Numbered from the stretch's first letter, positions 16,840-62,000 are shown. The stretch is DNA of 64,000 nucleotides from Candidatus Pacebacteria bacterium UBA6180 (GCA_002422165.1 DITQ01000001.1:71919-135918); one strand, 5' to 3'. Numbers and translations are program-made. The notes: generated by a model not told the origin, from the sequence alone.

Positions 16840-17051
16840 AAAATTTCCCTTGACTCGGCTACAAAATTACCGCTTGCAATTGACTTTGATTCTTGTTAGT
16901 TTGGTCTTTGCTGTGGAACGCAGTGAAAATCTGCGACTGTGCCGCAACGGTGATTTCCTTTTTGGATCAAGTCCGATCTTCAGCAAAATTGCTAATCTTG
17001 ACGAGCATCGAGTAAGAATTTTTCTGTAGAGAAAAAATTTTGCCAGACGAT

Positions 17052-36935: not shown

Positions 36936-36995
36936 TAGTATAGCAATATGCTTGATTTAATACGCAATCAAAAAAAATTCTGTTTTCACAAAAAG

Positions 36996-37067
36996 TGCCT
37001 CCGGAGGGAATCGAACCCTCATTTTAAGTTCCGGAAACTCATGTCCTATCCATTGAACGACAGAGGC
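36996..37067 (-). tRNA. tRNA-Arg (anticodon CCG)
   Basis: The minus-strand sequence is GCCTCTGTCGTTCAATGGATAGGACATGAGTTTCCGGAACTTAAAATGAGGGTTCGATTCCCTCCGGAGGCA. Anticodon loop TTCCGGA, T-loop TTCGATT. Confidence 0.85.
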
Positions 37068-37175: not shown

Positions 37176-40100
37176 ATGGTAGAGAAAAGTTCTATTAAGA
37201 AAAAATTTCTCGAGACCGAGCATGCTCTTGCTCAGCCTGAACGTTGGCGAGCCAACCAGTTGTTTCAATTAGTTGAAAATAACCTGAGAAAATCAGAAAA
37301 AATTGATAGAAAAATCAAGATAATTTCTGGTGCTGCGGCAAATTCTTTTGCCACGCGTATCCTCAGAAATCATCGAGAGCAATTCCAGAGAGAAGGCAGT
37401 AAAGAGCTTGCTTCTCCTATTCCAGAAAAACAGGCTGATGAAGAAGTCTTCAGTGAAGTTTTAGTAGTCGATGAGAAATATTTGATAGAAATCTCGCTAA
37501 ATGTGAGGAGAAAAGGAAGCTATACAGATGAGAAAAATATTTCCTTGCCTGTTTTTTTAAATGACAAAGTTTACGTTATGAGGACGGCCACTGGCCAGCT
37601 ATACGTAGCTTTTGATCATGAAGATTCTTTTTTAGCTCATAAGGAAACTTACCAAACTATTGAGAAAGAAGAAGTTGATCCATATAGTGCATTTATTCAG
37701 GTTTTAAAATATTTTTCTTGTTCTGGTAAAAATAGTCAGCAATTTTTGATGGAGCATCAAAAAATGGCAGAATCAGTTGGTTTGGATTTGGGAATCAATT
37801 CAAATCACTACGGCTATCACGGTCAAGCACGCCTACACATTTACCTAGCTGGGCACCAACCTCCTTCAGATAGTTTTGCAGATGATTTGTTGGTTGGAGC
37901 AGCACTGCGGAAGGGATTTCATTTAAATGAAAAACATGAAAATGTTCAAGAAGAAGCTGCTCTTAATAATCAATTGTGGGAACAGTTTTGGGAGGGTTTG
38001 CAAGGAGATGTTGTCTTGAAGTCTTTAATGAGAATGGACGTCAACTATTTACCAGGTTTGTATGATTCAAAAAGTGTGAAGCAATTAGTTGCTAAAGTGG
38101 CGATTGCGCAAGTTTATGGTCGTACCAGTGACCTACAAGAAATAATTCCCGTGCCTAGAAAACTTGTTTTTTCACTAAAAGCAATTGCTGAATATGTTGT
38201 ACGCCTTTTGTACTTGGAGAGTTGGGAAAAAGCTGAAGGTTTGGATGAGTTATTTTTTAGTAAGCCGACATCGTATCGTGTTAAACAAATTGCATTTGGA
38301 TTATTTTCCATATATGACAAAATTGGTTTTTCAAGCATCGACGAGGCTTTAAATTTCCTTTTTCAGTATCATCAAATTACTGAATTAGAGAGAGATGAGC
38401 TGAAAAATTGCTTGGACTTAGAACAGCAAGTCGCCAGTCTTCCTCGTTTAAAAGAAGATCAGGCCTTATCTAGAGAAGCGGCTGATTTTTTAGGTATATA
38501 CGGTGTTAATGAAAATTTATTCAACTCAACTTCATTGCTTGCTTTTCAGTTAGATGCAGATGCTTTGGGTGCACCCAGAACATATTTATCAGTAAAAAGA
38601 GATAGCTCTCTTACTGGGTTTGGTTTGCGCTTAGAGCATTTATCTCAATCTATAACAAATCACTTTCCTAGTTATAAATTTCGTGTCAAGAACGATCGCT
38701 CTTTTCTTAGAGATAGACGAGCTCCATTTTGGTCAGTTCTTTTTGGTCATGAACTGGGGCTATATAGGCATGATGAGTTTGATTTGAAACAAATGCTGAT
38801 TGAATTTCAAACTGCTTTGCAAGTTTTGAAGAGTTATGAATTGATTCCCCATGAGATGGCTTTGACGATTATTAGTTTTTGGAAAAATATTGTAGATAGA
38901 TTAAACATATCTTCAGAGACAGAGATAGATTCTGGAAATAGTGCCAAAGAATTACTTTACAAATTAGAAAAAAGAATAACTAAAACCCATTTAGCTCATC
39001 ATGCACATGCTGGTGAACATCTGAAATTTTGGCTTTCTTCTTCAGTTTTCCTAGAAAGAATGCGTTACTTTTGGCAAAAAATTAGAGCTAATGGATATCC
39101 TTTGGCGGCTCACCTAGAGCAAGCTCCAGCTCATGGTGGTCTAGAATCTAGTGCTAAAAATTTACCACTTCACCTGGTAACTGACAGAACTACTCGTTTT
39201 GATAAGGAACTCATTAATCTTAAATTTTATATGAAAAAAGCCAAAGAATTAGATAAAAATTCTTCTGCTCATATTGCGGTGCGCATGGCAGCCATTCGTC
39301 AATATCCAAGTCGGGTGCATTGTCGAGACCATCGCTATGAAGATAATTATTCTAGAACAGTGTGGTTTGAATGGGAAGTTTCAGCATTTACCAAAAGATG
39401 GATTGCAGAACATTGGCAAGAAATAGTTGGAGAAGAAGAAGTTTCTTATTTTAAAAATGCAACTGAAATTGGAGAGAGAATTTATGGAATTATCAATCAG
39501 GAAATTGAAGATTTGCTGGCACAGGCTTTTCAAGAAAACAATCAAGCTCGTCGAACTCGCATTTTGCTTCATGCTTATCGTTTGGCAACGACAATTTATG
39601 AATTTGACAGAATTTGGGAGAAACCAAGGGTTGATGAGCGCGTTAATTTAAATATTTGTGCGTGGAGTGACAACTATAATCAAATCAGAGATAGTTTACG
39701 AAAAATGATTGACATTGCCAGTAAAGAAAGAGTTAAGCCTCCAGGGGAAATTAAAATTAAGCCTGGGCAAGTTCACTGTTTGTTGGGACCCAATATGGGT
39801 GGCAAAAGCACTGTTATGCGACAACTTGGCTTTGGAATTTTAGCTCACAACCAAGGTCTGCCTCAAGTTGGAGGAGGGTTTAGCGCTGCAGATGATATTT
39901 TTTTGAGTAGTCCTGTGGGTAGTGAACGGCAAATGGCTGGTGAAAGCTTGTTTACACAGGGAGCCAAAGAATTGGGAGACATTATTGAAGCAAAGCAAAT
40001 AGGGAGGCACAAGTATTTGTGGATGCTTGATGAATTTGGTCGCCGGACCAATGCTCGTTATGGACAGGCAAACATGATGACAGCAAGCATAGTTGCTGCA

Positions 40101-41768
40101 GCTTATGAAGAGACCCCCAAAGATATGGCTCTTATGGCAACTCATTATCAATCAATGGTTCGTTATCAACCCTTTTTTCAAGCTCTGGGTTTGGAATTGG
40201 TTTTTTGGAAAGTGGAAGACTTTAAACTCAAGAGGCTTGAACCTGATGAAGAGGTAAAAAGTTTAGCTATTCAAGCGATTGCTAAGCATCTGCCACTGAG
40301 TGAATATGAAGATTGGCCTGATAAGGAAGATGCTCAGCATGCAAAAAATTCTATTGGAACAAAAGAAAAACCAGTTTTAAAATCTTTGAGTCGAGAACAA
40401 ATTGCAGCTGCGACAAGAGATGATCTAATGGGAGCCAGCATGCGGGAAAAAATTGAGTTTCTATCAAATCGTTATAACATGACAGTTGTGGAAGCTAAAA
40501 TTTTTCTAGCTCGCTATTTGGTTCCAAAAGAGGTAGAAGAGAAACAAAAAATTGTCGCTGCTGTACTTGCTCATCCGCAACTAACTGAACACTTAAAAAT
40601 CTTAAAAGAAATTCAAGAAATTACCTCTTTTCATAAAAGACTGCTAGAAGTTGATTGGAAACAGCGTACGGCAATGAGAAGGAATTTTTATAAACACTTT
40701 GATTTAAAAAAGATTGATTATAACGCCAATATAGATGTTTTTAATAAACAAGTAGAGGTTTTTTTGAATCAGCTAGTAAAAAAAGCCAACAAAACCATGC
40801 GTTTTGGAAAAAAACTCATTAATGACGTTGTTCCTAACTGGCTTGATGGTAAAGGAACTACCTATACTATTGTAAATGATATTTTAAGCGGAAATCTTAA
40901 CAGAGGAATTTATGAGTTAGGAGCAGTTTTTTCTTATGCTTCTCAAATCAAAAGCAAACGAGAAAATGGCTTTGGTTATGCTCAAGCTGAATTTAGAGAT
41001 GAGGCAGTTTTTGCGGCAGAAGAGGCGTGGAACCCAAATTTGCGTGAGGAAAAAATCGTTACCAATTCATTTAATTATGATTTTAGAGATGGGAGAGCAG
41101 GAGTGGTTACTACTGGTGAAAATGGTTCTGGAAAGAGCAATCATCAAATTACTGTTGGTCAAATAGGTATAGAGGCAACATGCTTGGGTTTTGGTCCTGC
41201 AACAAAAATTATCGCCCCAAAGAATTTACAAGTACTTGCTCTCACTCAGCCAGTTAGTGATACTCTCAAAGAGAGCTCAATGGGTCAAGAAGTAGTTCGT
41301 CGGATAAGTAAAGCAGTGGCAGTAGCGAAACATAGTAAAAACCCAACTCTAGTTCTGCTTGACGAGCCTGGCGCTCCCACCTCAGAGACTGATGCACACA
41401 AAATCATTGTGTGGCTATTTCATAAATTTTTGAAAAACACTAACACTAAATTGGAAGTGTCCACGCATTGCGATGGTTTGGTGGATGCTCTAAAAGATAA
41501 AGTCTACTTCCAAGCGTTTCGCTTGTTGAGTGATCAGCCGTTTAAAGCCTTTGTGGGAACAGCAGACAGCAACGCTTTGGAGGTTGCCAAGTTTTATGGT
41601 ATGGATGAGACATTTTATGACATTGCCAAAATTGTGCACGAGTTTATTGTTTTTACTCAGTCAGACAAAAATTTAATAAAGCTTCATGCACAAGTTTTTG
41701 CAGATAGAATTAAAGAAATATTGGTGAAGAGAGTGTTTGTGGCTGAAGCGCAAGCCCAGGTTGTTTAG
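37176..41768 (+). CDS. Giant protein (1530 aa) with two tandem MutS-family ABC ATPase domains and a large unknown N-terminal region
   Basis: Domain 1 at about aa 865 to 1030: GPNMGGKSTVMRQLGFGILAHNQGLPQ...SLFTQG...LWMLDEFGRRTNARYGQANMMTASIVAA. Domain 2 at about aa 1320 to 1470: TGENGSGKSNHQITVGQIGIEATCLGFGPA...SSMGQE...LVLLDEPGAPTSETDAHKII...STHCDGL. Confidence 0.6.
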   Translation: MVEKSSIKKKFLETEHALAQPERWRANQLFQLVENNLRKSEKIDRKIKIISGAAANSFATRILRNHREQFQREGSKELASPIPEKQADEEVFSEVLVVDEKYLIEISLNVRRKGSYTDEKNISLPVFLNDKVYVMRTATGQLYVAFDHEDSFLAHKETYQTIEKEEVDPYSAFIQVLKYFSCSGKNSQQFLMEHQKMAESVGLDLGINSNHYGYHGQARLHIYLAGHQPPSDSFADDLLVGAALRKGFHLNEKHENVQEEAALNNQLWEQFWEGLQGDVVLKSLMRMDVNYLPGLYDSKSVKQLVAKVAIAQVYGRTSDLQEIIPVPRKLVFSLKAIAEYVVRLLYLESWEKAEGLDELFFSKPTSYRVKQIAFGLFSIYDKIGFSSIDEALNFLFQYHQITELERDELKNCLDLEQQVASLPRLKEDQALSREAADFLGIYGVNENLFNSTSLLAFQLDADALGAPRTYLSVKRDSSLTGFGLRLEHLSQSITNHFPSYKFRVKNDRSFLRDRRAPFWSVLFGHELGLYRHDEFDLKQMLIEFQTALQVLKSYELIPHEMALTIISFWKNIVDRLNISSETEIDSGNSAKELLYKLEKRITKTHLAHHAHAGEHLKFWLSSSVFLERMRYFWQKIRANGYPLAAHLEQAPAHGGLESSAKNLPLHLVTDRTTRFDKELINLKFYMKKAKELDKNSSAHIAVRMAAIRQYPSRVHCRDHRYEDNYSRTVWFEWEVSAFTKRWIAEHWQEIVGEEEVSYFKNATEIGERIYGIINQEIEDLLAQAFQENNQARRTRILLHAYRLATTIYEFDRIWEKPRVDERVNLNICAWSDNYNQIRDSLRKMIDIASKERVKPPGEIKIKPGQVHCLLGPNMGGKSTVMRQLGFGILAHNQGLPQVGGGFSAADDIFLSSPVGSERQMAGESLFTQGAKELGDIIEAKQIGRHKYLWMLDEFGRRTNARYGQANMMTASIVAAAYEETPKDMALMATHYQSMVRYQPFFQALGLELVFWKVEDFKLKRLEPDEEVKSLAIQAIAKHLPLSEYEDWPDKEDAQHAKNSIGTKEKPVLKSLSREQIAAATRDDLMGASMREKIEFLSNRYNMTVVEAKIFLARYLVPKEVEEKQKIVAAVLAHPQLTEHLKILKEIQEITSFHKRLLEVDWKQRTAMRRNFYKHFDLKKIDYNANIDVFNKQVEVFLNQLVKKANKTMRFGKKLINDVVPNWLDGKGTTYTIVNDILSGNLNRGIYELGAVFSYASQIKSKRENGFGYAQAEFRDEAVFAAEEAWNPNLREEKIVTNSFNYDFRDGRAGVVTTGENGSGKSNHQITVGQIGIEATCLGFGPATKIIAPKNLQVLALTQPVSDTLKESSMGQEVVRRISKAVAVAKHSKNPTLVLLDEPGAPTSETDAHKIIVWLFHKFLKNTNTKLEVSTHCDGLVDALKDKVYFQAFRLLSDQPFKAFVGTADSNALEVAKFYGMDETFYDIAKIVHEFIVFTQSDKNLIKLHAQVFADRIKEILVKRVFVAEAQAQVV

Positions 41769-46992: not shown

Positions 46993-47226
46993 AAAACTAT
47001 AATATCACTACTATCAATTAAAGTTAGATTTGAAGATATCAGAAGTGCTTTAATCATCCCTATGGTTTCTTTTGCGGAGCACCTGGGTCTGGAACCCGTG
47101 CGTCGTTATAACTGTCCCATTCCAGAATCGAGATTCCAGGGTAATTTTAGCAAAAATGGGACAAATGGGACACTATAAAAAGGGTGTGTCTTGTTTTTGT
47201 TAATGATGTATTTTGATATATTAATA

Positions 47227-48777
47227 TCAAATCCAACCTTGAGCACTACTGTACATGATAAGAGAGAACATTCTTGCTATTATCTCTCCCGAGAGATTAA
47301 AAATATTGTGATTTTGAAACTCAAAATTATGGCCTGTAAAGTTTCTAACACATGTAGTAATTCTAGCGTTAGCGAAATTCACATCTGTGGTATTAGATAC
47401 AGCGCTGTTAATTTTTGTTTCTAATTCAGTTAAACTGCTTGCAGCCGTATATTCACCTCTAGTTGAATTAATTGGTGTACTAAAAAGTGTTTGCAGCATA
47501 TCGCCAAGAGTCCCACTTAGACTTGAATTCTTTCTTTTCAGCTCATCTTCATACCACAGCGCAAGTTCAGATAGAGATCTTAAAATTTCACCTCTGTTCA
47601 CAGGATTACTCAGCTCAGAATTCAAGCTATAGGAAAAAGAAAACCGATAGAGAGTTATGAATAAAAGAATTTTCTTTTCAGGCGAAAGTGATAAAACATA
47701 TGATTTAAAATCACCTTCTGATAAAGTCGTTGAAAAAACTTGAATATTCTTACTAAGAATGTCTTGGAAGAAGTTCGATATCTGTATATTTTCAAATTGG
47801 GTATATAGATCACTGGTTGGCAAATCTTTCTCTGGATCTATGGTGACTCCAGATAAATGGGCTAAACAACTCCTATCATTATCGTAAGCCTTATAAAGAT
47901 TAAATAACCCTTCTATCACTTTCCCCTGGGCTAGTTGGGAAACACCTAAATTTGCCAGTGAAATGCCTCTGTTTACATTTTTATTATCAGTTTTATTAAA
48001 GTTAACAATCTCACTATCAATATTTGCCCAATAACTTTCTGACACACCATATAATCCACGATTTAGTAGCCAAGTTCCCATCATCTGAGTGTAGCCATCA
48101 ATCGGCTTATTCTTGTCCTCATAAGTATTAATTTCGAAGTCCGATACCTTCATTTGACTTAAACGTTCTCTAAGGCCGATTCTTCCGAGCTCAACCAGGT
48201 AGGCGATATCTCGATGAACTCTGTCAACAATATCACCGCCATTTCCAGGAGTTGTTGCTAATAAGTCATACTTTGAGTCAAATTCAGTAGTGTCAGTTGG
48301 GAGTTCAGACAACTTCTTCACAGCCACTTCAGAATCTGAAATCAACTTTTTTATTTCATCTAAACTACTTTGAAATTTGCCTTCTAATGCAGATGCATTA
48401 AATAGTAGCGGAACAGTAAAAATTAAATCGAAACTTCCCAAAATGCCACTTGGCATTACTTTGAATAGATAATCATTCTGCACTGATAAAGAAGTTGGTT
48501 TCGTGTTGAATAAAAAGTAGTAGGCTAAGACAACATTTGGAATAGGATCTCTATCAGGAATTAAATTTCTGCATCTTTTTGCTAAAAATAGGAATTCACT
48601 TCTTAAAAAATCTGCTTTCCTTAATCCCTCTTTGATCCAGTTCGTATATTGCTCAGAGTTGTTATCTGTAAACCCTTGCTGTGGGATACCAAATCTGTGT
48701 CTATATTCTCGCACTAACAAAATAAACATTGGGTGATTTACAAGGCTCTCAAAAGAGAGATTTATTTTGTCGTACAT
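47227..48777 (-). CDS. Hypothetical protein (516 aa), 4th gene of an AT-rich four-gene operon
   Basis: Overlaps the upstream gene by 16 nt. No recognisable motif. Very AT-rich. Confidence 0.5.
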   Translation of the reverse strand: MYDKINLSFESLVNHPMFILLVREYRHRFGIPQQGFTDNNSEQYTNWIKEGLRKADFLRSEFLFLAKRCRNLIPDRDPIPNVVLAYYFLFNTKPTSLSVQNDYLFKVMPSGILGSFDLIFTVPLLFNASALEGKFQSSLDEIKKLISDSEVAVKKLSELPTDTTEFDSKYDLLATTPGNGGDIVDRVHRDIAYLVELGRIGLRERLSQMKVSDFEINTYEDKNKPIDGYTQMMGTWLLNRGLYGVSESYWANIDSEIVNFNKTDNKNVNRGISLANLGVSQLAQGKVIEGLFNLYKAYDNDRSCLAHLSGVTIDPEKDLPTSDLYTQFENIQISNFFQDILSKNIQVFSTTLSEGDFKSYVLSLSPEKKILLFITLYRFSFSYSLNSELSNPVNRGEILRSLSELALWYEDELKRKNSSLSGTLGDMLQTLFSTPINSTRGEYTAASSLTELETKINSAVSNTTDVNFANARITTCVRNFTGHNFEFQNHNIFNLSGEIIARMFSLIMYSSAQGWI

Positions 48778-49961
48778 ATTCTTATCCTTATCATTTTTCT
48801 CCCCATCACATCTGGGTTCTTAGGTAAAATAGTGGCCTCTACTATATTTTCAATAGAAATCTTGTATTCTTTGGCAAAATGTTTCTTTAAGTTTTGAATA
48901 AGTTTGGTTTTATTTGTTTCTATAGTGTGATAATACAGTTGATTTCTAAATGTAGATCCAAATTGGTCAATCTCATAAACCTCAATTAATGATCCTTCGG
49001 TTCTGTTTTCCTCTGGGTCAAAGACCTCAATGGTGTACACACTTTTCTTATACTTATAATATTTCAGCAGGATACTTGGAGATACATTGTCAAAAGAAGC
49101 TCCTGTGTACCAAGTATTGCCTGGTAAAGGGAATTGGTTGGGATAAGTCTCCGATCGGTCAAAATTAGCTGGATGAGCTACATCACCAAAAGTCGATCTT
49201 TCATCCCAAAATCTTTTTATAACATTTTTTTCATCATCATCTATTTCAATTTTGGAAGCAACCTCTTCAAGTCTATCTTTGAACTTAGGTTTATTCGATA
49301 GAGAGTTCACAATAATTTCTATCGATTTGAAGTGGTCAAGAGCTCTTTTCTCATCACTATCAAAAATTAAGTATCCCATTGATGCTCTGTAAAGATATTT
49401 CAAAGCTCTTTCAAATATTGCATCACGAAATTCTAGTGAATCATTCAAAAAAGTTTCTGTTAGTTCACTCATCCATTGATTTCTTTCGGGACGATCAGGT
49501 AAATATATATGACCACTCTCCAGTTTGAAATCGACTTCTGATTCATTTCCTTCCTCATCTAAAGAATAAATCTTATTAACTTGATAAATGTATGGTTGAA
49601 AACTACCTCTGTTTTCACCGTGTTTCAGTTTCAGATCTTTAAGATTTGCCAGAGATAAAAACCGTGCCACTCTATCGATTGCACGAATTGCTCCACCTAC
49701 GGCTGATCTAGTATTTTCTTCTTCAATGTCATAGTAAATGACATACTCAGATTTAATTTTTATGGGGTCAAAATATGGTAAAGATGTAACATAAGTCTTG
49801 TGAAAGTTGTTTACATCAGAATCGGAAAACACACTTTTGATTGGGGCGAAGTTCCTTTTTTCTTGCTCTTCAAAAGTCATTTTCCTTATAAAGCACTTTT
49901 CAATCTCTCTTTCTGAGAGAGTCTGACCATGGATTAGTGCATAAATTCTATATTTACTCAT
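48762..49961 (-). CDS. Hypothetical protein (399 aa), 3rd gene of the operon
   Basis: Overlaps neighbours on both sides. Contains RFWDERSTFGDVAH, which is HEPN-like (R-x7-H) but not canonical. Confidence 0.5.
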   Translation of the reverse strand: MSKYRIYALIHGQTLSEREIEKCFIRKMTFEEQEKRNFAPIKSVFSDSDVNNFHKTYVTSLPYFDPIKIKSEYVIYYDIEEENTRSAVGGAIRAIDRVARFLSLANLKDLKLKHGENRGSFQPYIYQVNKIYSLDEEGNESEVDFKLESGHIYLPDRPERNQWMSELTETFLNDSLEFRDAIFERALKYLYRASMGYLIFDSDEKRALDHFKSIEIIVNSLSNKPKFKDRLEEVASKIEIDDDEKNVIKRFWDERSTFGDVAHPANFDRSETYPNQFPLPGNTWYTGASFDNVSPSILLKYYKYKKSVYTIEVFDPEENRTEGSLIEVYEIDQFGSTFRNQLYYHTIETNKTKLIQNLKKHFAKEYKISIENIVEATILPKNPDVMGRKMIRIRICTTK

Positions 49962-51747
49962 GATTTTTAAAATAGGCTGTAAATTTTTCTACTAGTAATT
50001 TGTATAAAAAATCAAATAAAGGAGTATCTGAATATATCAAGTCACATTCTCCTTCAGTCCAGGTACTAACTTTATATTTATTTCCTCGCAACTCAACCTG
50101 ATTAAAATTAGAGTTTTTCAAAAGCAACTTTTCATCTTCTGTAAGCTCCACAACTCTCGTTGTTTTTGTATGATTTATTCCCTCCAAATAGAAAGTGTGT
50201 AGTTTAGGAATATCAAATCCTTTATATACATCTTTGGTTTCGATTGAAAATGCTATGACTTCTGGAAGACTTAATTCTTTTGCTAAAGATGGAAAATTAT
50301 TAAGTACAACTTGGTTGTAAGCTTCAACAAGTGATGATTGAAAGACATGGAAGTTGTTAGCAACATCCTCTTTTGAGAGGGTATTCCAGATTAAGTTAGA
50401 TTCTAACTTTGAAAGTCTCTCAAAACTTTTTCTAATATATGGTCTTTTAATCTCACCTGTTTGATTTTTAAGGTAAGTTAGTAGCTCAACGAAAATACCA
50501 AAAGGAAATTTTTCATTACCAACTAGTATCCTTGGTAGAGATTTGTCTTTCTTTGAGAGTGTAGTTATTGTTAGCCTATTTACCTTAGCTAGTTCTTCAG
50601 TATTTAATGAAGATAATACATCTGGATCAAGGTAACTCCTATTAGGAATATCGTTCTTCTTTATTAAGACCTTATATGCGTTTATTGTCCACCATGGTAG
50701 GAAATTATAAAAAGCAAACTCCACCTCTTCTAACGAATATTTATCTTTTTTATCTAAACCAAGCTGAATCTTGAACTTATCGACAAAGGCAAAAATGAAT
50801 TCTTTTGCTAGATCTTTGTTCCCAGCATGATTTAGCAACTTTTTATATAGAACATTTAATACTTTCTCACGAATAATATCTCTAGAATACTTTTTATGAT
50901 CTTTGAGTATTGGGTTTTGCGTACTAAAGCCTCTAAACTCCAAACCCTCATTTCTTAATTGCTCATGCAATGCTTTTGTTGCTTCTTTAATCTGGACGTC
51001 GTTTTTTGTGAGTGAAATTGGATATAGTGCATAAGATAAGTTATTTTGAGAAAACTCATAGTAAGTCAACCCAATTTTCCAAGCATCAGGATAATATATC
51101 CTTTTTACCAACTTAAACTCATTTTCCAATAGGCTATTTAGCTCATCTAAGAACAAATGAATAAATTCATACCTTTCGTCAATTGCTCCCAATGCCGGTG
51201 TAATTGTTTCAGAAATAAGTGCATATGCATTCTTATATTTTTCAAACTCTTCAGCTTTATACCTATACAAATCAATTATTTTCGACCATTCATCAATAAA
51301 TTCTTTGCTACCATTTTTTATAACTTTTAATTTATCAAAATGAATTGTTTTACTAGTTCCTAGATTATCTACAAAACTTTTATCAATCTGAATCCAATAA
51401 GCCTCTTTTGGATCATCAAGTCTGACCCCAATGAGAATTTTCGGTATCCAATTATTGGAGTCTTTACAATAAGACAAAAATTTATCATCGTTAAAGCTAT
51501 ATTTGGGGGGATTAATATTTTTTGAAGGCAACTTTTTGATCTGAACTTCAAGCTTCCCAATTGGAAAGCCTTCTTTGTCAGTTACCTCAATATAACCATC
51601 AATATTAGGCCAAGTATCATTTGATTTAATATCTGGCATTGCTCTTTGAGTTTCTGACAGCCAGGCACTAACATAACTTACAGCTTGTTGGTCAAAAAAA
51701 CTTGTTTTGAAATGTTTTGCTGATTTTGACTTTTTTCCTTTAGACAT
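49954..51747 (-). CDS. Hypothetical protein (597 aa) with an N-terminal DUF4365-like PD-(D/E)xK motif, 2nd gene of the operon
   Basis: WPNIDGYIEVTDKEGFPIGKLEVQIKK gives a D-G-x-I-E...V-Q-I-K pattern typical of DUF4365/REase-like folds. Family assignment is from memory. Confidence 0.5.
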   Translation of the reverse strand: MSKGKKSKSAKHFKTSFFDQQAVSYVSAWLSETQRAMPDIKSNDTWPNIDGYIEVTDKEGFPIGKLEVQIKKLPSKNINPPKYSFNDDKFLSYCKDSNNWIPKILIGVRLDDPKEAYWIQIDKSFVDNLGTSKTIHFDKLKVIKNGSKEFIDEWSKIIDLYRYKAEEFEKYKNAYALISETITPALGAIDERYEFIHLFLDELNSLLENEFKLVKRIYYPDAWKIGLTYYEFSQNNLSYALYPISLTKNDVQIKEATKALHEQLRNEGLEFRGFSTQNPILKDHKKYSRDIIREKVLNVLYKKLLNHAGNKDLAKEFIFAFVDKFKIQLGLDKKDKYSLEEVEFAFYNFLPWWTINAYKVLIKKNDIPNRSYLDPDVLSSLNTEELAKVNRLTITTLSKKDKSLPRILVGNEKFPFGIFVELLTYLKNQTGEIKRPYIRKSFERLSKLESNLIWNTLSKEDVANNFHVFQSSLVEAYNQVVLNNFPSLAKELSLPEVIAFSIETKDVYKGFDIPKLHTFYLEGINHTKTTRVVELTEDEKLLLKNSNFNQVELRGNKYKVSTWTEGECDLIYSDTPLFDFLYKLLVEKFTAYFKNHE

Positions 51748-51776
51748 ATTTGTTCATATTAATTATAGCTTTGATT

Positions 51777-53387
51777 TTATTGTATATTTCCTGAAAACCC
51801 CTCATTCTCACTCACCAAAAAAATCGTCCAGTAAACATACCCGCTGGCATCTTTTAAATCTCTTCCAGTCAGAACACCTTCCCGTCTCAATTTTTTGATC
51901 GATGATGGTTTTACGCCTCGTTTTTCAACGTCATATTTATCAAAATGTTCTTTCTCCCACCACTCCTTATCCAGATCAAGCACAGGGACCACACCTTCCT
52001 GGATATTTCTCCAGCAATCACGGCATCTCAAGCCATCTGGCCGCCACCAAATGTCCTCACCGTTGTGGGATCTTCTGCAAATTCCACAAGTGTAACCTCT
52101 ACCACCATCATTGAGAAAGAAACCATTTGGTTCATCTTTTAGCCTGCGAGTCCTAATACGTTTGGTTGCAATGTATTCAGCGTCCATTCTGGCTAGCTGT
52201 ACGAGGTTGTGGTGTTCATATTTAGCTCTGAAATCTGGATCAAGCTTGGATTTAGGCTTCTTTGGTTCTTCTTTACCAAACAGCTTAAGCAAGTCGTCTT
52301 CTGATTCATATCCTTTGAGCTTGCCACTGAGAAATCCCAACCGATAACTCATCAGGTCTTTCGGTGCTCGCCAGTTGGTGTCCTTGAGTGTTGTTTTCAG
52401 TAAGTCGTATAAATCAGAGATGCTTTCTCGGTCACGTCGCTTAGGCTTAGTTTCTTGAAGAGTAAATGGCACTAATACGTGACGATCCATATTAGGCTCA
52501 CCAATAGATAGGCGGGTAAAACCACTTTCTTCAAGTGCTTTATTGATCAAAGTTTCTAGGTCTGTGATGGCGATTTTATTTACCGATAACAGCTTTTCAT
52601 GAGCTGGCGTATCGAGTTCAGCGAGAACTTCCTCTTTTACTTCATGAGCAACCTCCAGAGCTTCAAGCGTTTCTACATATTCTTTGCCTTTTTCATCAGA
52701 TAAACAAAACTCTGCTCGATACTTCACCAATAGTTGTTTGTCTTCTAGCTCTTCTTTTGCATGTTCTTCCTGCCACTTTTTATGCTCCTCATCGCTTTTC
52801 TTCAGATCCCAAATCTCTTTATTTGAGTAGCCACAGTTTTTGCACTTGTAGCGGGTGGTAATGACCTCATCTTTCTTACTACTTTTTCTCTCTAGCTTTT
52901 GTTTGCAGTCAGGACAAAAGTCAGACTTAGAAACATAGATCTCGCCATCGTCATACGCACCTTGTCGCTTTTTACATTTTGGACAGTTGAAGGTGAATAG
53001 CACCCTCATGGGTTTACCATCATCCCAATCAACTAAGTGGTGAGAACCATCGTCAGTCATAGCACTCCCACATTCAGGGCAATTGGCTCTGGGAGCTGGA
53101 GTATTGTCTTGCTTGTCCTGTTTAAGGCGATCAGACTCAAGCCACTCAGCGATAGTTGAAGCTCTGTGTTTGTGTCTTTGAGCTTGGATGAGAAAGAGCA
53201 TCCTGCCTCTGAGCAATCCCATGTTTCGTTCTTGTTCAGATTCTGGGTAATTTTGGAACTTTGGTTCCTGTTTCATTTTCTCGCCAATAGAATTGACCAT
53301 CTCCAAAGTCTTCAGACACTCTCTGATAGTGCCAACATCGTAGCGATCTTCATACTCTTGTTGTGGTTTTAGGTATTGAAACGACAT
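51777..53387 (-). CDS. Multi-zinc-ribbon protein (536 aa), 1st gene of the operon
   Basis: Three CxxC...CxxC pairs: CPECGS...CPKCKK, CPDCKQ...CKNCGY, CGICRR...CRDCWR. No NTPase motif. Somewhat higher GC than the downstream genes. Confidence 0.5.
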   Translation of the reverse strand: MSFQYLKPQQEYEDRYDVGTIRECLKTLEMVNSIGEKMKQEPKFQNYPESEQERNMGLLRGRMLFLIQAQRHKHRASTIAEWLESDRLKQDKQDNTPAPRANCPECGSAMTDDGSHHLVDWDDGKPMRVLFTFNCPKCKKRQGAYDDGEIYVSKSDFCPDCKQKLERKSSKKDEVITTRYKCKNCGYSNKEIWDLKKSDEEHKKWQEEHAKEELEDKQLLVKYRAEFCLSDEKGKEYVETLEALEVAHEVKEEVLAELDTPAHEKLLSVNKIAITDLETLINKALEESGFTRLSIGEPNMDRHVLVPFTLQETKPKRRDRESISDLYDLLKTTLKDTNWRAPKDLMSYRLGFLSGKLKGYESEDDLLKLFGKEEPKKPKSKLDPDFRAKYEHHNLVQLARMDAEYIATKRIRTRRLKDEPNGFFLNDGGRGYTCGICRRSHNGEDIWWRPDGLRCRDCWRNIQEGVVPVLDLDKEWWEKEHFDKYDVEKRGVKPSSIKKLRREGVLTGRDLKDASGYVYWTIFLVSENEGFSGNIQ

Positions 53388-53458: not shown

Positions 53459-55312
53459 TTGATGAAACAAGCAAATAAGACAAAAACTAACTCTGATAAA
53501 AGAAAATCTTTTTTAAGACATAAGTTTACCTTAAAATCAGCGACAATCTTTTTTGGATCTCTATGGTTAATGACGATGCTGTTTTTCTTGGCAATAGTGA
53601 TAGTAGGAACAAATTTCTTTCAAACGACTGTTGATAAGGGCCCACTGCAGGGAGATATCTGGGGCATTGTGATGGTGCTGGATATACTTGGTGGAATCGG
53701 ATTCTTTTTAATTTTTTCTATGCTTCTGACTGCATTATCTATGAGATCAAATGACCCTGATAAAAAGAAGTCTTCATTCCTAAGGAAGTTAATCAATTTT
53801 TTCCTCTTTTTCATTTATCTGGGAATTCTTCCTTTGTATTTATTACTCAGAGTATGGCAACCAAAAAAATGGTTCGTCTGGTTAACAAATATCAAGAACA
53901 GTTCCAATAAAATCGCACTCAAATCCCTTGGTAAAAAATTAGCAATATCTTTACCGATACTACTGTTTTTACTTCCAGTTTGGGCAGTCGGATATTTTTC
54001 TGTGGGAACAATCGTTGCTGACGAACTTGGTTTAGTTCCATACCAAATGGATATTGTTGGCACAGGATCAATGCACCCGACTTTTCCAAAGGGAGATGGT
54101 AAAGATCCAAAAGAACTTGCGAAACAAGTTGTTGGCCGTCAAAACATGTTTAATTATCCAAATGGCTTCGTGTTTTCAGGAAAACGATATTTTGGTCACA
54201 CCATAACTCGTGGTGACATTATCACAGTAGAAGATGAAAAGACGAGAAAAGCTACTGAGGAAACATATGGAGATCCATCAGGTTGGCTGAAACGAGTTGT
54301 GGCAGTTGCTGGAGACACTTTGGAGTTGAGAGATGGTATTTTCTACCTCAATGGCGAACCCCAAAAGGAGCCATATGTAGCTAGAGCACGATCAACATTC
54401 GGTCAGTCATTTCTGCAGGAATGTCAGCAAGTAACCGTTCCAGATAATTCTATATTTATCATGGGAGACAACCGCACTGGGAGTCGAGACTCCAGAGACG
54501 TAGGTTTCTTTAGCATAAATGATATTAAGTCAGTTTATCCGTTCACCAAACAAGCAGAAAACCTCAGTAAAAACTGGCATGACACGACAAATGATCTAGA
54601 AGAATCTGCCAGAATTAAACTCAATAAAGAAGAATACGTTGAAAAACTCAATCAGAAACGTGAAGAAGAAGGTCTAAAACCGCTCAAATATAATGAAAAA
54701 TTAGAGCTTTCTGCAGAAAAAAGAGGTGCCAAAATTCTTGAACACAATGACTTCTCTTTTGAGGCAACTGCAAGTGGTTATACGATGGAGAAAGCTATCA
54801 GAGAGGTCGGTTATTATAATACTTTTTGGGGAGAGGCACCAAGCAATGGTTATTACGAAGCAAGTGAACTGCTAGATTATCAGCTTGAGTTTCCTGAATC
54901 TAAAACATTCGTTTTCGACAAGCGTTTTCAAGAAATCGGTATTGCTGAAGTACAAGGTGAGATCAATGGTTGTCCAGCACATGTGATTGTGCAACATTTT
55001 GGAGGCTATGTGCCACCAAACTATTCTGCATCAGACATTCAATCATGGGAAGATGCACTAGGATCATTAAGAAACATTCAACCTAGTTGGAATAACTTAA
55101 AGAATTCCGGTGATTTTTATAATCGTCATAAGGAGAAAGTTGATCGGTTAAATCAAATTATCGATATTAGAATTAACAGAATGACTGATATTGTTGGGAC
55201 AATGAAAGCAAATAGATGGCTAAATGCTGAACAAAATGCATTTGCTAATTCAGGTGACATGGCTTTGTATAAAGAACAGGAAGAACTCGCTACGTTCCTT
55301 AACAGCCAATGA
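53459..55312 (+). CDS. Multi-TM signal peptidase I (S26) domain fused to a C-terminal CAP/SCP (YkwD-like) domain
   Basis: About 5 N-terminal TM helices. SPase I Ser box GTGSMHPTFP, Lys box KRVVAVAGD, and GDNRTGSRDSRDVGFF. The C-terminus matches the CAP pattern LKPLKYNEKLELSAEKRGAKILEHNDFSF...GY...GE. Confidence 0.55.
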   Translation: MMKQANKTKTNSDKRKSFLRHKFTLKSATIFFGSLWLMTMLFFLAIVIVGTNFFQTTVDKGPLQGDIWGIVMVLDILGGIGFFLIFSMLLTALSMRSNDPDKKKSSFLRKLINFFLFFIYLGILPLYLLLRVWQPKKWFVWLTNIKNSSNKIALKSLGKKLAISLPILLFLLPVWAVGYFSVGTIVADELGLVPYQMDIVGTGSMHPTFPKGDGKDPKELAKQVVGRQNMFNYPNGFVFSGKRYFGHTITRGDIITVEDEKTRKATEETYGDPSGWLKRVVAVAGDTLELRDGIFYLNGEPQKEPYVARARSTFGQSFLQECQQVTVPDNSIFIMGDNRTGSRDSRDVGFFSINDIKSVYPFTKQAENLSKNWHDTTNDLEESARIKLNKEEYVEKLNQKREEEGLKPLKYNEKLELSAEKRGAKILEHNDFSFEATASGYTMEKAIREVGYYNTFWGEAPSNGYYEASELLDYQLEFPESKTFVFDKRFQEIGIAEVQGEINGCPAHVIVQHFGGYVPPNYSASDIQSWEDALGSLRNIQPSWNNLKNSGDFYNRHKEKVDRLNQIIDIRINRMTDIVGTMKANRWLNAEQNAFANSGDMALYKEQEELATFLNSQ

Positions 55313-56733
55313 AACTAACAAAATCACTCTTCTTAAGCTATCTGGAATCACCACTGCACATGTGGTTGTCAGTTCATAGTGATACTCCACCAAAACCACC
55401 ATCCTTGTACGACCAACATACGATGAAGCAAGGGTACAGTGTTGAAAAATTAGCGAAAGATTTTTTACAGCGGAAAGTCGCTACACAGTATCCTACTGGC
55501 ACGACACTCACCTTTGAAGCCACTCTAACTGATGGCAATTATGAGTCGCGCATTGACGCTCTCGTTCATAACACTGTGAACAACACCTATGATCTGTATG
55601 AAATCAAAAGTAGCACCACTATTCATACTGAGCATAAATATGACGTGACGTTCCAGTATCTAGTGGGTAAAGCCACACTGCCTATCAACAAAGTCTACTT
55701 AGTGCGAGTCAACAGTGACTATCAACGAGCTGGGGAGATTGATATCAATGAACTCTTCATCGTGGAAGACATGACTGACCACATCGCCAAAAAAGAAGAT
55801 GAGGTGTATCAATTGAGATCTGAAGCATGGGGAGTGATGCGACTTGAACAAGAACCAAGTGACGAGCATTGTTTTAATCCTGGTACCTGTACCTATCCTG
55901 ACCACTGTTTCCCCAATCTACCCGATGGTTCGATCTATGAACTAGGCAGAGCCAGCAAAAAACAATATGGTGAGTTGCTTGATATGGGGATAGAGCACGT
56001 CAAAGACATTCCTGACACTTTCACCAGCAACTATAAGCAGAGACTGCAAATTCAATCAGCCAGACAAAACCAGCCAATAATTGATCACGAATCCATTGCT
56101 CAGGAATTGAGTCAACTGAAATACCCAGTCTACTTCTTAGACTACGAAACCTATGGTGAGGCACTGCCCATGTACGATGGCTACAAGCCGTATCAACAGG
56201 CAGTCACACAGTTTTCCATCCACGTTGCCAGAAATCCTGAAAGTGATGAGTTCGAACATTATGAATGTCTAGCAACGGAAGCTGGTGATCCAGCTCGGCA
56301 TCTTGCTACAGAGCTATGCAAGGTCATTGGTGAAACAGGCTCAGTTATTGTCTGGAACAAAGGTTTTGAGTGTGGCAGAAATGATGAATTGGCTGTTTTA
56401 TGTACTGATTTAGCTCTGCAACTGCAAAGCATCAATGAACGAGTCTATGACTTGATGGATGTGTTCAAAAATGGTTTGTATGTTGACCACCGTTTTCATG
56501 GCAGTGCTTCAATCAAAAAAGTCTTGCCCGTCTTATGCCCAGAGCTGAGCTACAAAGAACTAGAAATTGGTGAGGGAACCAAAGCTATGCTTGCTTGGCA
56601 TGAGATGGTCTATGGAGCTATAACTGCGGAAGAAAAAGAACAAATTAAACAAAACCTACTGACTTACTGCAAGCTGGATACTTGGGCGATGGTGGAGATT
56701 TGGAAATTTCTCATAGACATAATAAAAAGGTAA
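55309..56733 (+). CDS. DUF2779-like protein: Cas4-type PD-(D/E)xK nuclease with a DnaQ/RNase-H-like C-terminal half
   Basis: YDLYEIKSST (D..EIK), a Cys cluster CFNPGTCTYPDHCF, and an FLDYETYGE (DxE) exonuclease-like motif. Start overlaps the upstream stop (ATGA). Family name is from memory. Confidence 0.45.
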   Translation: MKLTKSLFLSYLESPLHMWLSVHSDTPPKPPSLYDQHTMKQGYSVEKLAKDFLQRKVATQYPTGTTLTFEATLTDGNYESRIDALVHNTVNNTYDLYEIKSSTTIHTEHKYDVTFQYLVGKATLPINKVYLVRVNSDYQRAGEIDINELFIVEDMTDHIAKKEDEVYQLRSEAWGVMRLEQEPSDEHCFNPGTCTYPDHCFPNLPDGSIYELGRASKKQYGELLDMGIEHVKDIPDTFTSNYKQRLQIQSARQNQPIIDHESIAQELSQLKYPVYFLDYETYGEALPMYDGYKPYQQAVTQFSIHVARNPESDEFEHYECLATEAGDPARHLATELCKVIGETGSVIVWNKGFECGRNDELAVLCTDLALQLQSINERVYDLMDVFKNGLYVDHRFHGSASIKKVLPVLCPELSYKELEIGEGTKAMLAWHEMVYGAITAEEKEQIKQNLLTYCKLDTWAMVEIWKFLIDIIKR

Positions 56734-58129: not shown

Positions 58130-58789
58130 TTAGTAATATTTTCTAAAATTCTTAGCATTTTCTATTTGTGAATCTGACTTATTTATGTAATCATAATTAA
58201 CAGAAAAATTTTCACCCAACTTAATGTTCTTCATTCTATCTAACCTAAACGTTCTCAAGTCATTTCTATAGGTACAATAGGCAACACAATAAGTGCTGTT
58301 TACGTTATATGGATGAATTGTTCTGCTAAAGCCCTTGTAGTTGATTGTGGCTTCCCTGTGCTCTTTGACAGCTATTGCAATGATTTCCTGATTTGTTTGA
58401 CCACTGACTTTAGTGGAATTCTTTTCCTTTATTTTTTCGTCTCTAAGTCTCCAAAGAAAAGTACTATCAATTTCGCACTGATCCTTTAAAGATCCATATA
58501 AAAGACTGTTTACAATAGATCTCTCTAAGCCAAGTTTAGATGCTATATCTTTGGCTTTAATACCATCACTTTCCTCAATTATTTTCAAAACCCTTGTCTT
58601 CAATGAAACTTTTGTCTTGTTAGCCAGACCACTTTGGCTTAATGGGTGCCACCCATAATTTTCATCCTTGTAACAACGTCCTTTGAGTTTTTCAATTAAG
58701 ATGTTGTAAGTAATTAAGTAATTTTGAAAAGCCTTTTTCGCAATTTCTTGACCAGTTAGTCCAGGATAGTTGCTTACTATTTCAAGCAC
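58130..58789 (-). CDS. wHTH-WYL domain regulator module; GTG start with an open upstream frame through a Zn ribbon (possible C-terminal module of the helicase)
   Basis: Two HTH-like segments and a WYL-domain signature ...IHPYNVNSTYCVAYCTYRNDLRTFRLDRMKNIKL. There is no ATG start, and the frame is stop-free for 116 codons upstream. Confidence 0.55.
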   Translation of the reverse strand: MLEIVSNYPGLTGQEIAKKAFQNYLITYNILIEKLKGRCYKDENYGWHPLSQSGLANKTKVSLKTRVLKIIEESDGIKAKDIASKLGLERSIVNSLLYGSLKDQCEIDSTFLWRLRDEKIKEKNSTKVSGQTNQEIIAIAVKEHREATINYKGFSRTIHPYNVNSTYCVAYCTYRNDLRTFRLDRMKNIKLGENFSVNYDYINKSDSQIENAKNFRKYY

Positions 58790-59088: not shown

Positions 59089-62000
59089 CTAAAACATCAG
59101 GGTTTTTGACTTTTTTTTTACGATGTTGGTTAATCGTTCATCAAGAGTTTGGATAGGATCTTTGCCAATATTAAACTTATTAATCCTTAAGAATTTATAA
59201 CCATAACCTTCAAGAACCTTCTGCCTATAAATGTCGTTTTCATTCATGTAATACTCATAATTATATTGATCAACGTCGGATATATTTTCGCTAAAGTGTT
59301 CTTTGAAACCATCGTATTCAATAATAATCTTCTCGTCTTTATACATTAATAAAAAGTCAACTTTATATTTAGGATGAATATAGTTGCCATCAAGTTGCTG
59401 GAGATAATCACCTAATGGAAACTGAGGTTTGAGCTCAATGAATTCTTTGTTTTGTTTGTAAAAATTTGTTTGTTCAAAATAATGTTTTATTTTATCTTCC
59501 ATCGGGGAGTTTGGATCAGTTTGTCCAAGAGTTTTACCTCTTCCAACTTCTAATTCATTTTTATAGTGAAGAAGTGCATTCTTAATCTCTCCTTTAAATT
59601 CTTCTGGTTGTTTACTCAAAATGAAGTGCATGCAATTTTTTGCACGACTAAAACCAACATTAAGTCTTTGAGATTTAACTGTTCCGTCAACCTCATCACT
59701 CAGTTTTGCTAAATCGATGGGAAAAATCCAATTAAGCCTGTCCTTTTCTTTAGTGGCAACCATTGAATAGAAAATACAATCTCTTTCTTCTCCCTGACAT
59801 GTGTCAAATGTCATGATTTTTAGTTTACATTTGCCAAAAAGCCAATCTCTTTCTTGAAGTTCGTTAATTTTGTCAAATAAGAGAGTCACTTGCTCACGAT
59901 GTGGAGTAATTATTCCAAGAGTCTGTTCTGTGCCAGCATCATGAAACTTCTTTAATTGTTTGATAATATGATTTACTTCCATCTCGTTTGTATTTTTTAA
60001 TTCATCAAATTTACCATCATGATCAATAACATCAAACTTTATAACATCATCAATGGGAACACCCCTTACTTTCATGCATTGGAGCGAATCAGCGTAGAAA
60101 TATTTATCTGAAAATGAAATAATTTCTGGATAGCATCTAAAATGTTTTTTTAATTGGCATTCATAGTTTCTTATGAATCTCATGAACTTTAAAATTGAAT
60201 TTTTAACATCAAAGTTTTCTTGTACTTTGGTTAACCAACCATAGTTTGATTCTTCTTTACCTTTCTCCAATAGAAAAGCTTCTTGAACTTTCTTCTTCAG
60301 TTCTTGATTCGTAACTTTGCTAGCATTATTAGCTTTAACATTGGAAAACTGCTTATCATCACCTAAAACAACGATTTGTTTTCCTCTTATTAGTGCAGGT
60401 AAAGATTGAGCAATGCTTACTTGTGAAGCCTCATCAATGATAATTAAGTCAAACAAATCTTTCTCAAGTGGAATATACTCAGCATAATCTCTAATTCCAG
60501 CCAATATGCAGGGAAAAGCTTTTTTTAGATTTCTGAATAATTCTTTAGGGAATTTCTGTTTTTTTCTTAATATATTTTTGAGAGTATTGACGTCACCAGC
60601 AAAGCTACTTGTGTACTCGATGATTCGTTTATCTAAGAAGTAAGTCATTTGAGCAGTAACAAGATGTTCAATTGTTGTAACTCCCTCTGAGTAGAAACCA
60701 TTTTCTTGAATTCCGAATTGGTCTTCAAGTTTTCGCTCTATTTCCTTATATTCAAGATAAGTATTAATTTCTTCTTCTGAATGTTTCTCGATCTCACTGT
60801 TAATGTCTTTGAGATAATTAAAATCACTGTGCAATTTAATCTGATCTGACAGTTTAGGATATTTGTTTCTGAAATCTTTAACAAATTGAATATCATCAAA
60901 TAGTTCTAGTACTTTCTTGAAATCTGCAATTATTGTTTCAACTCTTTGAATAGAGGCGTCAAAATTTTGTGTAGTTAACTTTTCTACATCAATTTCAACA
61001 CCAAGAGTATTTAAGAAACTAATTTGCAAGTCGTAGTTATTCACCTCGTTTATAAGGTTCACGACCTCAATTGCTAACTCAGTTTGCCTTAGTTCTTCTA
61101 AATTCTTAATTGCATAGTCAGGATAATCTTCACAAAAACCAATCAGTTTTTTGCTTGACTTAGCCAAACTGGTTGGGAAATTTAGGTCCATATCTTGTTG
61201 TAAACAATTAAATATAAATTTGAATTCTTCGTCCCCTAATGAGTTATTAGCGATTTTTTCGTTTAAAATTTCCAGAACGTTTAGCACTTCCAAGATTCGT
61301 TGAAAGTTTTTATCTGGATTTTCAATGTTGAAATAGTGGAAGCTTTTTTTAATTGATCTTGTTAAATCATTGACTTGGTTTCCACTTAGCAAAAATCCAA
61401 TCAAAGGCTTCTTTAATTTTTGAAGGTTTATGCAATATTGTTTCAGCTCAGAAAGTGACTCTTTAACAGATTGTTCTTTTGGGACCACAAAATTTGCCAA
61501 AAAGTCTTTATCTCGTAAATTACTACTAAGAATACGATCAGATTCGTTATAGATGCCCCTAAGTAATTCATATTTGCTTACATTATCTTGTAGTTTCTGA
61601 ATATTATCTTTATGATCAAATTTTAGTGCTTCCTCATTAATTGTGATCTCTATTAAACTTTGCATCTCTTCTAGAACATCACTTATTGTTTTTGAAAAAT
61701 TAAGTAACCATTTTTTATTTTGATTTTTAAGCTCTGAGTATGAAAACTTAGAAGATAATTTTTCTTTTGAGGTCTTGATTCCGATCAATAAATCATACAA
61801 ATCTTTAAGTTTTTCTAAATTTTCTTCTGATACATTCTCTAGTGAAATTCGAATTTTATAGTTCTCCGTAATTTTTTCAATCGATGTTTTTAGGCTGGGT
61901 AAATCAGTGCTTAGATCAGAGAGATTTTCTGAGGAAATCCAATTGATTTTTTCAAAATTTTCAGCATGATGAAAGTAATATTCAATGTCCTTGATTGAGA

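Follow-up and report, generated by a model that had tools for sequence, protein, structure and literature searches.

Two unrelated candidate anti-phage modules in a probable defence-gene exchange hotspot of a Patescibacteria genome

A stretch of 64,000 nucleotides from the genome of Candidatus Pacebacteria bacterium UBA6180 (GCA_002422165.1, DITQ01000001.1:71919-135918; hereafter the window, to which positions refer unless another locus is named) carries four consecutive genes on the minus strand, here named g1 to g4. These genes and the conserved non-coding element that follows them are the subject of this analysis, and the loci with which they were compared bear numbers with the prefix L. 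The four open reading frames (ORFs) are:

51777-53387, minus strand: g1, ORF of 536 aa
49954-51747, minus strand: g2, ORF of 597 aa
48762-49961, minus strand: g3, ORF of 399 aa
47227-48777, minus strand: g4, ORF of 516 aa

A gap of 29 bp separates g1 from g2, g2 and g3 overlap by 8 nt (ATGAGTAA), and g3 and g4 overlap by 16 nt. No terminator-like site was found between the four genes on the minus strand, which makes their co-transcription plausible. The ORFs, their lengths and their spacing are exactly as given in an earlier reading of this DNA made without database searches (the sequence-only reading), which had taken the genes for one AT-rich operon encoding a candidate novel defence system. 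Tight spacing and overlapping stop and start codons are no proof of a shared system. The description as AT-rich holds for g2, g3 and g4, with guanine plus cytosine (GC) contents of 0.310, 0.335 and 0.351 compared with 0.443 for the first 36 kb of the window (used as reference), but not for g1 (0.425), which is core-like in composition, as is the nearby DUF2779 gene (0.427). As had also been noticed, no Walker A (P-loop) motif could be identified in g1, g2, g3 or g4.

The three units g1, g2 and g3-g4 were observed to be distributed independently. All four genes are found together on this contig family only; as they do not co-occur in other genomes, the expectation that the four-gene unit would travel together failed. 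About 78 full-length relatives of g2 were found in bacteria and archaea (Patescibacteria, Desulfobacteria, Elusimicrobia, Gammaproteobacteria, Leptospira, Clostridium, Aenigmarchaeota, Halobacteria, Bathyarchaeia and Methanobacteria). In the neighbourhoods of relatives from 22 species-representative genomes and three other places on further contigs, tblastn detected none of g1, g3 and g4, and clustering of all neighbouring ORFs revealed no universal partner of g2. For g4, which has 66 relatives (44-87% identity, all approximately 517 aa), 25 metagenome loci and three contig look-ups were covered, about 15 of which can be judged. At these approximately 15 loci outside this contig g2 is never present; g3 immediately precedes g4 in 11 other loci (12 of the approximately 15 judgeable loci), overlapping it by 16 nt as in the window, and g4 is the constant member of the pair. 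The g3 family comprises 45 representatives among 1.84 billion clustered proteins; tblastn with these 45 proteins revealed no hidden g3 in L031, L042, L047, L051 or L054, and in L042 g4 stands alone. As far as the sequences compared go, g3-g4 is a pair confined to Patescibacteria and evolutionarily independent of g2. At least 298 relatives of g1 were identified (45-90% identity, many of them 85-90%), all belonging to Patescibacteria (Roizmanbacteria, WWE3 and others), and none of the 11 distinct loci found with g1 as query contains g3-g4, these loci holding other cargo.

In L031 (9126-10004), the place of g3 directly upstream of g4 is taken by a MerR/HTH_17 protein of approximately 292 aa, with a 4-nt overlap. 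Homologues of this protein pair with DUF4917-like genes in L061 (12538-13419) and L070 (13112-13984), and this replacement and re-pairing suggest modular partner swapping.

The cargo next to g1 varies within a constant frame. A slot extending from the 3' end of g1 to a conserved non-coding element of approximately 165 nt was recognised in five loci (the window, L057, L070, L072 and L073), each with a cargo of its own. The features that frame the slot in the window, and the recurrent partner of g1, are:

47063-47224, minus strand: conserved non-coding element bounding the cargo on the side away from g1; 90% identical in L057, its core GGGTTCCAGACCC ending the cargo in L057, L070, L072 and L073
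51777-51822, minus strand: putative recombination breakpoint in the last ~15 codons of g1; identity to L002 switches at 51822, and the tail ...GFSGNIQ is atypical
55309-56733, plus strand: DUF2779 (Cas4-like plus exonuclease) gene, recurrent partner of g1 (PF11074, E=8e-39)

L057 (GCA_040960375.1) shares 87% nucleotide identity with the window over g1 and the DUF2779 gene and carries different genes downstream of g1; a stretch of 164 nt immediately downstream of g4 (window 47063-47224) is again 90% identical, following an unrelated gene in L057. The cargo of L057 consists of a LexA-like gene, a 172-aa gene, a cyclase of the cyclic-oligonucleotide-based anti-phage signalling system (CBASS) type (PADLOC, E=3e-175) and a 420-aa gene. 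That of L070 comprises two unknown genes, DUF4917 and a MerR-like gene, that of L072 M78/HTH, SAVED and two more genes, and that of L073 SAVED, a DncV-like cyclase and LexA. Elsewhere, PDC-M36A (L059) and DUF4238 (L061) were found beside g1. The marks of a defence hotspot, namely conserved flanks with differing cargo and known defence systems among that cargo, are both present.

Within the element itself (approximately 120-165 nt) lie two hairpins (GACAC...GTGTC, and a GC-rich one around GGGTTCCAGACCC), a CCCATTTGTCCC repeat and an extended -10-like TGnTAAAAT. The window has one copy, and others lie at L057 13464-13626, L070 ~14035-14158, L072 ~14716-14838, L073 ~15299 and L030 ~4900-5060; since L048 contains two (712-828 and 2178-2299, one of them beside an Hsp20 gene), the element is multi-copy. 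Rfam, ARAGORN and covariation analysis of the element returned no family, no tRNA and no compensatory base changes, respectively. Its identification as a tRNA fragment or att site is unsupported, ARAGORN and Rfam being negative, a 5' acceptor strand and an integrase not having been seen, and the element being multi-copy. Nor does the slot resemble an integron-type cassette array: no integrase was called beside it in the window or the related loci examined, and no structure is supported by covariation. No phage backbone adjoining the slot was seen. Genes g2-g4 matched no family in PHROGs, tblastn against GenBank phages (run with g1, g2 and g4) and PLSDB plasmids (run with g2 and g3) returned nothing, and a viral contig scan with g4 gave no matches.

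A contig from a different sample, L002, differs from the window by 2 mismatches over g2-g3-g4 (51821 to 47134; ~100% identity over 4.6 kb), compared with only 77-88% identity over g1 and the sequence past it. In the window, g1 ends in a C-terminal tail unlike that of all its relatives, and at the other end of L002 two mismatches fall within the conserved element shortly before the contig ends. Taken at face value, these sequences are most simply read as recombination in two conserved flanks having moved g2-g4 as a single block. Because this recently transferred block excludes g1, g1 is the conserved flank or anchor of the cargo slot rather than cargo, and is a member of neither module. The region is probably a defence-gene swap hotspot, the slot of which holds two stacked, unrelated candidate anti-phage modules (g2, and g3-g4). 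Genes g2-g4 look like defence cargo, and to that extent the defence role put forward in the sequence-only reading stands as the likely one.

The three zinc ribbons previously noted in g1 were recovered as six CxxC pairs (C103/C135, C158/C182 and C434/C455). Searches of g1 against Pfam, NCBIfam, PHROGs and PDB produced only generic zinc-ribbon matches, with PDB profile matches at E>=0.05. The commonest partner of g1 is DUF2779, which is close to it in 7 of 17 loci (the window, L057, L065, L067, L068, L069 and L073) and nearby in 6 of the 11 distinct loci found with g1 as query. DUF2779 has been described as a Cas4-like plus RNase H-like exonuclease, quasi-essential in JCVI-syn3 (PMC13621843, PMC3985635), and the steady pairing with it suggests a role of g1 in DNA transactions. 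The possibility that g1 is a phage gene was rejected, as the five IMG/VR contigs carrying it are defence islands; these 'viral' contigs consist of chained defence genes, including Type I restriction-modification (R-M) with embedded Shedu, Gabija, Eco57I-type R-M, DUF2779 and CBASS. In L030 (1009-1131) and L041 (991-1113), a 41-aa stretch with 49% identity to residues 329-369 of g1 was observed approximately 1 kb upstream of g3-g4 and may be a g1 gene remnant.

Of the two candidate modules, g2 consists of one protein, the predicted catalytic part of which lies at its N-terminal end:

51343-51618, minus strand: g2 nuclease core, residues 44-135, with D50, E54, Q69 and K71 (PADLOC, PDB profile matches and residue conservation)

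The DUF4365-like PD-(D/E)xK pattern that had been read from the sequence (IDGYIEV...EVQIK) is supported by a match to the PADLOC model Aga_REase (Argonaute-associated restriction endonuclease, REase; E=2.3e-5, residues 48-140) and by matches of the g2 family profile to solved proteins in PDB (9qbq, DUF4365, E=1.4e-3; 9jsb, DREN-APAZ, E=0.043), which cover residues 47-135 only. The motif is also conserved, D50 being kept in 26/26 relatives, E54 in 21/26, Q69 in 24/26 and K71 in 23/26 (R in the other 3). Our own Pfam hmmscan did not call DUF4365 in g2 at E<=1; the precomputed annotation gives a 'weak' PF14280 match on g2 and matches on many of its relatives. The assignment to DUF4365 is based on this weak match together with the REase model and the profile matches to solved DUF4365/DREN proteins. 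The D...Q-x-K residues align with the VQvK of those solved proteins, and in the DUF4365 nuclease TmuRE the Q-x-K has been defined mutationally as the active site (Q62/K64; PMC10810196). For the C-terminal ~450 residues of g2, Pfam and PDB gave no match. The idea of a further nuclease domain, arisen by duplication, around NDVQIKE (residues 249-255) is unsupported (hhalign probability 0.5%). Homologues of g2 were found near known defence genes, usually in or beside R-M operons: relatives lie inside or beside Type I R-M operons in L016, L017, L018 and L028, and adjoin Type IIG R-M (L020, L023), an ApeA-HEPN gene (L004) and SIR2-HerA with DUF2779 (L005, L014). Gene g2 appears to be a single-protein module, encoding a candidate PD-(D/E)xK nuclease of the DUF4365/DREN type that is unrelated to g3-g4.

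The second candidate module, g3-g4, possesses two conserved sites of the R...H type:

49044-49463, minus strand: HEPN-like helical core of g3, residues 167-306, with the motif R255...H263 (RSTFGDVAH) at 49173-49199
47326-47346, minus strand: invariant motif R478-N-F-T-G-H483-N484 of g4 (RNFxGHN in the family), found in 30/30 aligned relatives; translation checked

The AlphaFold model of g3 (predicted local distance difference test, pLDDT, 78.6; predicted template modelling score, pTM, 0.81) shows a helical core between beta-rich parts, and on this model g3 probably carries a HEPN-like domain. Across 22 sequences, residues K212, E215, R255, A262 and H263 do not vary. The motif RS(x)GDxAH has the spacing Rx6H in most members of the family and Rx7H in the window copy and several others, so that the HEPN-like Rx7H segment pointed out earlier was found again. 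The statement that g4 is without recognisable motif, on the other hand, was mistaken. The protein is predicted to be all-helical; it has a TPR-like repeat region and, towards its C-terminus, an RNxxxH motif that spans the end of helix 466-478 and the loop preceding the last helix. The spacing of this motif agrees with the HEPN Rx4-6H signature. Alone or scanned with 22-30 relatives, neither g3 nor g4 had a sequence match in Pfam, NCBIfam, PADLOC, PHROGs or PDB, save one match of g3 to PADLOC PDC-M09A (E=0.01). Foldseek of the g4 model against PDB returned nothing significant (best E 0.15; a match to Csm6 at E=0.62 is non-significant). No match to a nucleotidyltransferase family was obtained for g3, g4 or their relatives. 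A relationship between the g4 C-terminus and the HEPN-like core of g3 was rejected (hhalign probability <1%). Defence genes neighbouring g3-g4 include Type I R-M (L035), SNF2 with Type IIG R-M (L036), an ABC-ATPase/TOPRIM protein (L040) and CBASS with R-M (L029).

If the region is a swap hotspot with two modules, its cargo would probably be exchanged by recombination in the 3' end of g1 and in the conserved element, and the present cargo would be a 4.6-kb AT-rich cassette with two evolutionarily independent candidate immune modules. As g1 is co-directional, transcription may run on from it into the cassette. The head of g2 would most likely be a PD-(D/E)xK DNA nuclease (D50, E54, Q69-x-K71) serving as a self-contained effector, gated by a C-terminal domain that would most likely detect a phage cue or modified DNA. 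The protein may act as a Type IV-like restriction enzyme or as a DREN-like abortive nuclease, roles which fit the constant association of its relatives with R-M operons. The pair g3-g4 would most likely constitute a translationally coupled, sensor-controlled ribonuclease (RNase) of the HEPN type that arrests the infected cell. To this RNase g3 would contribute the HEPN-like domain (Rx6-7H), and g4 the TPR-like region, which might, speculatively, be a protein-binding sensor, as well as the second invariant site (RNxxxH). HEPN sites function as dimers, and since the two R...H-bearing proteins are always co-translated, a composite g3/g4 site may be suggested as a speculation. A farther-reaching reading would combine three propositions: that g3-g4 is an undescribed two-protein immune module in which each protein gives one R...H half-site to a composite RNase controlled by the TPR-like domain of g4, that g2 represents a new single-protein DUF4365 nuclease family common to archaea and bacteria, and that the locus is an integrase-free cassette locus found lineage-wide. 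We regard it as possible, but rather doubtful, that all three hold jointly.

Several points weigh against the reading of the region as a swap hotspot with two independent defence modules. The defence role is deduced from location and domains only, and the nuclease and RNase activities and the recombination mechanism are likewise deductions. The L002 mosaic could in principle be a chimera of metagenome assembly. Codon 109 of g2 (51421-51423) encodes Arg in the window copy and Asp in 25/26 relatives, where it forms the motif G-V-D. Relatives of g1 adjoin g3-g4 in 6 of the approximately 15 g4 loci, above chance and in three orders: g1-g3-g4 with a 37-nt gap and without g2 (L034), g3-g4-g1 with a gap of 4-7 nt (L029/L039 and L032), and further adjacency to g3-g4 in L045 and L046. 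This adjacency is put down here to the hotspot but could reflect a functional link. The tight g2/g3 overlap and the joint transfer of the g2-g4 block, too, would be compatible with a link in function within this lineage. Finally, g3-g4 is convergent with a cluster resembling a type IV secretion system (T4SS) or conjugation system, comprising an M23 peptidase, a TraG/VirB4-like ATPase and TraC-like and PrgI-like genes, in L033 (9557-13038), L038, L044, L049 and L055; since five g3-g4 loci adjoin such T4SS-like genes, a role in mobile-element maintenance would also fit.

The adjacency of g1 bears on the alternative that g1, g3 and g4 form a trio, in which the zinc-ribbon protein is a DNA/RNA-binding sensor or regulator of the HEPN pair and g2 an unrelated insertion. 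The six contiguous loci, in which the g1 copies have only 34-57% identity, speak for this alternative, but g3-g4 occurs without g1 in approximately 9 of 15 loci, some of which have >5 kb of flank. Moreover, the 11 loci found with g1 as query hold other defence cargo in the place of g3-g4, the most frequent partner of g1 is DUF2779, and the recent transfer block leaves g1 out. Such a trio is considered unlikely. The T4SS-like neighbours, in turn, would suit the alternative that g2 and/or g3-g4 are addiction or competition modules stabilising mobile elements, or other accessory genes in a recombination-prone region, as would the small XRE regulators adjacent in 7 loci, the limitation of the family to one phylum and the common occurrence of HEPN domains as toxins. 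This explanation is also improbable: R-M, CBASS, ABC-ATPase/TOPRIM and Shedu-containing operons greatly outnumber plasmid or phage backbones among the immediate neighbours (for g3-g4, neighbours of the R-M, CBASS or ATPase-TOPRIM kind occur at least as often as T4SS-like ones), the phage and plasmid collections searched contain no matches, and the large size of the proteins (400-600 aa) is not that of typical toxin-antitoxin pairs. That g1-g2-g3-g4 is one novel four-component defence system, co-translated and interdependent, as the sequence-only reading proposed, is very improbable, for although the shared strand, the close spacing without terminator-like sites, the joint movement of g2-g4 between two strains and the lack of a match to any named system would agree with it, the four co-occur on this contig family only, g2 relatives are found without g1, g3 or g4 and g4 loci without g2, the loci found with g1 lack g3-g4, and g1 is set apart by GC content and divergence, flanks many other cargos and lies outside the identical L002 block, which stops in its tail.

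With PADLOC 2.0 (Zorya, Druantia, Septu, Gabija, Lamassu, Hachiman, PARIS and others), only the REase domain of g2 and the match of g3 to PDC-M09A (E=0.01) were detected, and nothing for g1 or g4, in line with the earlier statement that no named system is matched. A search of the literature on the PADLOC label 'PNTD1' yielded nothing useful. Comparison with known systems shows g2 to be most readily set beside other DUF4365 and PD-(D/E)xK proteins. It resembles the nuclease of SPARDA (DREN-APAZ; TmuRE) in that residues 47-135 align with solved DUF4365/DREN proteins and the D...Q-x-K is kept (PMC10810196), but it has no APAZ match (the PDB matches end at ~135), no Argonaute gene was called in approximately 25 neighbourhoods, and the protein is solo, its 450-aa C-terminal domain being unrelated. 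Divona, a single-gene DUF4365-fusion defence of Vibrio chromosomal integrons (bioRxiv 10.1101/2024.07.02.601686), is by its description alike in being one protein with an N-terminal DUF4365 nuclease and a second domain, carried as exchangeable cargo; its partner domain is crr6-like, whereas the C-terminal region of g2 has no Pfam or PDB match. As Divona defends, there is precedent for a single-gene DUF4365 fusion in defence. Type IV enzymes of the Mrr type share with g2 and its relatives a stand-alone PD-(D/E)xK nuclease with an extra domain, typically beside R-M operons; the domain order of g2 is reversed compared with Mrr, and no DNA-binding domain was recognised in it.

The pair g3-g4 may be likened to HEPN modules (HEPN-MNT, RnlAB, AbiD/F and ApeA), given the putative HEPN-like four-helix core and the invariant R...H of g3, the invariant RNxxxH of g4, and the two-gene, translationally coupled arrangement in defence islands. 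It differs in having no nucleotidyltransferase partner, which sets it apart from HEPN-MNT, and no Pfam HEPN match, in the large size and extra domains of both proteins (beta-rich in g3, TPR-like in g4) and in the x6-7 spacing of g3. The slot is comparable to P2/P4 prophage hotspots and to the core-gene-flanked islands of enterobacteria in having conserved flanks that enclose interchangeable cargo, which at this slot includes CBASS, SAVED, R-M and DUF4238. The flanks here are instead a zinc-ribbon gene and a multi-copy non-coding element, in Patescibacteria, and no integrase or phage backbone was seen at the slot. Two Patescibacteria-restricted defences obtained by functional selection, Dallas (ddgA/DdgA) and ldgA/LdgA, were reported in 2025 in Cell Host Microbe, Dallas being multi-gene with an abortive-infection-like phenotype (PMC12366544). 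They too are limited to Patescibacteria, and they are without detectable homology; the comparison with g1, g3 and g4 was made by description only, so overlap is possible.

Further features of the window lie in the same region, and the position of the four genes in an accessory, defence-rich variable region next to a helicase and a Cas4-like gene (DUF2779, listed above) was borne out:

53459-55312, plus strand: S26 signal-peptidase/CAP-domain fusion gene, between DUF2779 and g1 (GC 0.375)
58130-58789, minus strand: WYL/MarR-type regulator, adjoining the 1560-aa helicase
59089-63771, minus strand: AAA_11/AAA_12 helicase, 1560 aa (PADLOC PDC-S37 7e-47, Mokosh MkoA 7e-41; weak C-terminal MTES_1575 REase match)

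The position between DUF2779 and g1, filled by the S26/CAP gene in the window, is empty in L002 and L057 and occupied by Type I R-M in L073, and this interval looks like a second variable slot. The WYL/MarR regulator and the helicase probably make up a further defence module of this AT-rich island; a helicase 48% identical to that of the window was also found near a g2 relative in L005. A recurring set of genes was observed no more than a few kb from relatives of g1, g2 or g4 in L005, L029, L042, L046, L059, L061, L070 and L073 (e.g. L059 1-4298). It consists of ParB_N-N6_N4 methyltransferase(s), a small HTH_Tnp_1_2 protein, an unknown protein of ~400-525 aa, an OB-fold (tRNA_anti-like) protein and an XRE regulator, and may be a mobile or phage-derived element. 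On the plus strand at 37176-41768, a gene of low GC content (0.376) for a protein of 1530 aa that includes a MutS domain V ATPase, beside a tRNA-Arg (36995-37067), may be another accessory or defence-type gene. An adenosylcobalamin (AdoCbl, B12) riboswitch was identified at 16888-17023 on the plus strand (53 bits, Rfam gathering score).

Patescibacteria (candidate phyla radiation, CPR) have tiny genomes in which very few defence systems have been identified (PMC12366544). Because known systems (CBASS, SAVED and R-M) alternate with unknown genes in the slot between g1 and the conserved element, this slot is a ready-made filter for new immune genes in these bacteria. It presents two separately testable candidate modules, a DUF4365 nuclease fusion found in both bacteria and archaea and a HEPN-like/TPR pair without family annotation. 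If the integrase-free cassette-exchange locus from g1 to the element is real, it could be mined for further unknown systems, and the locus offers a tractable route into CPR immunity.

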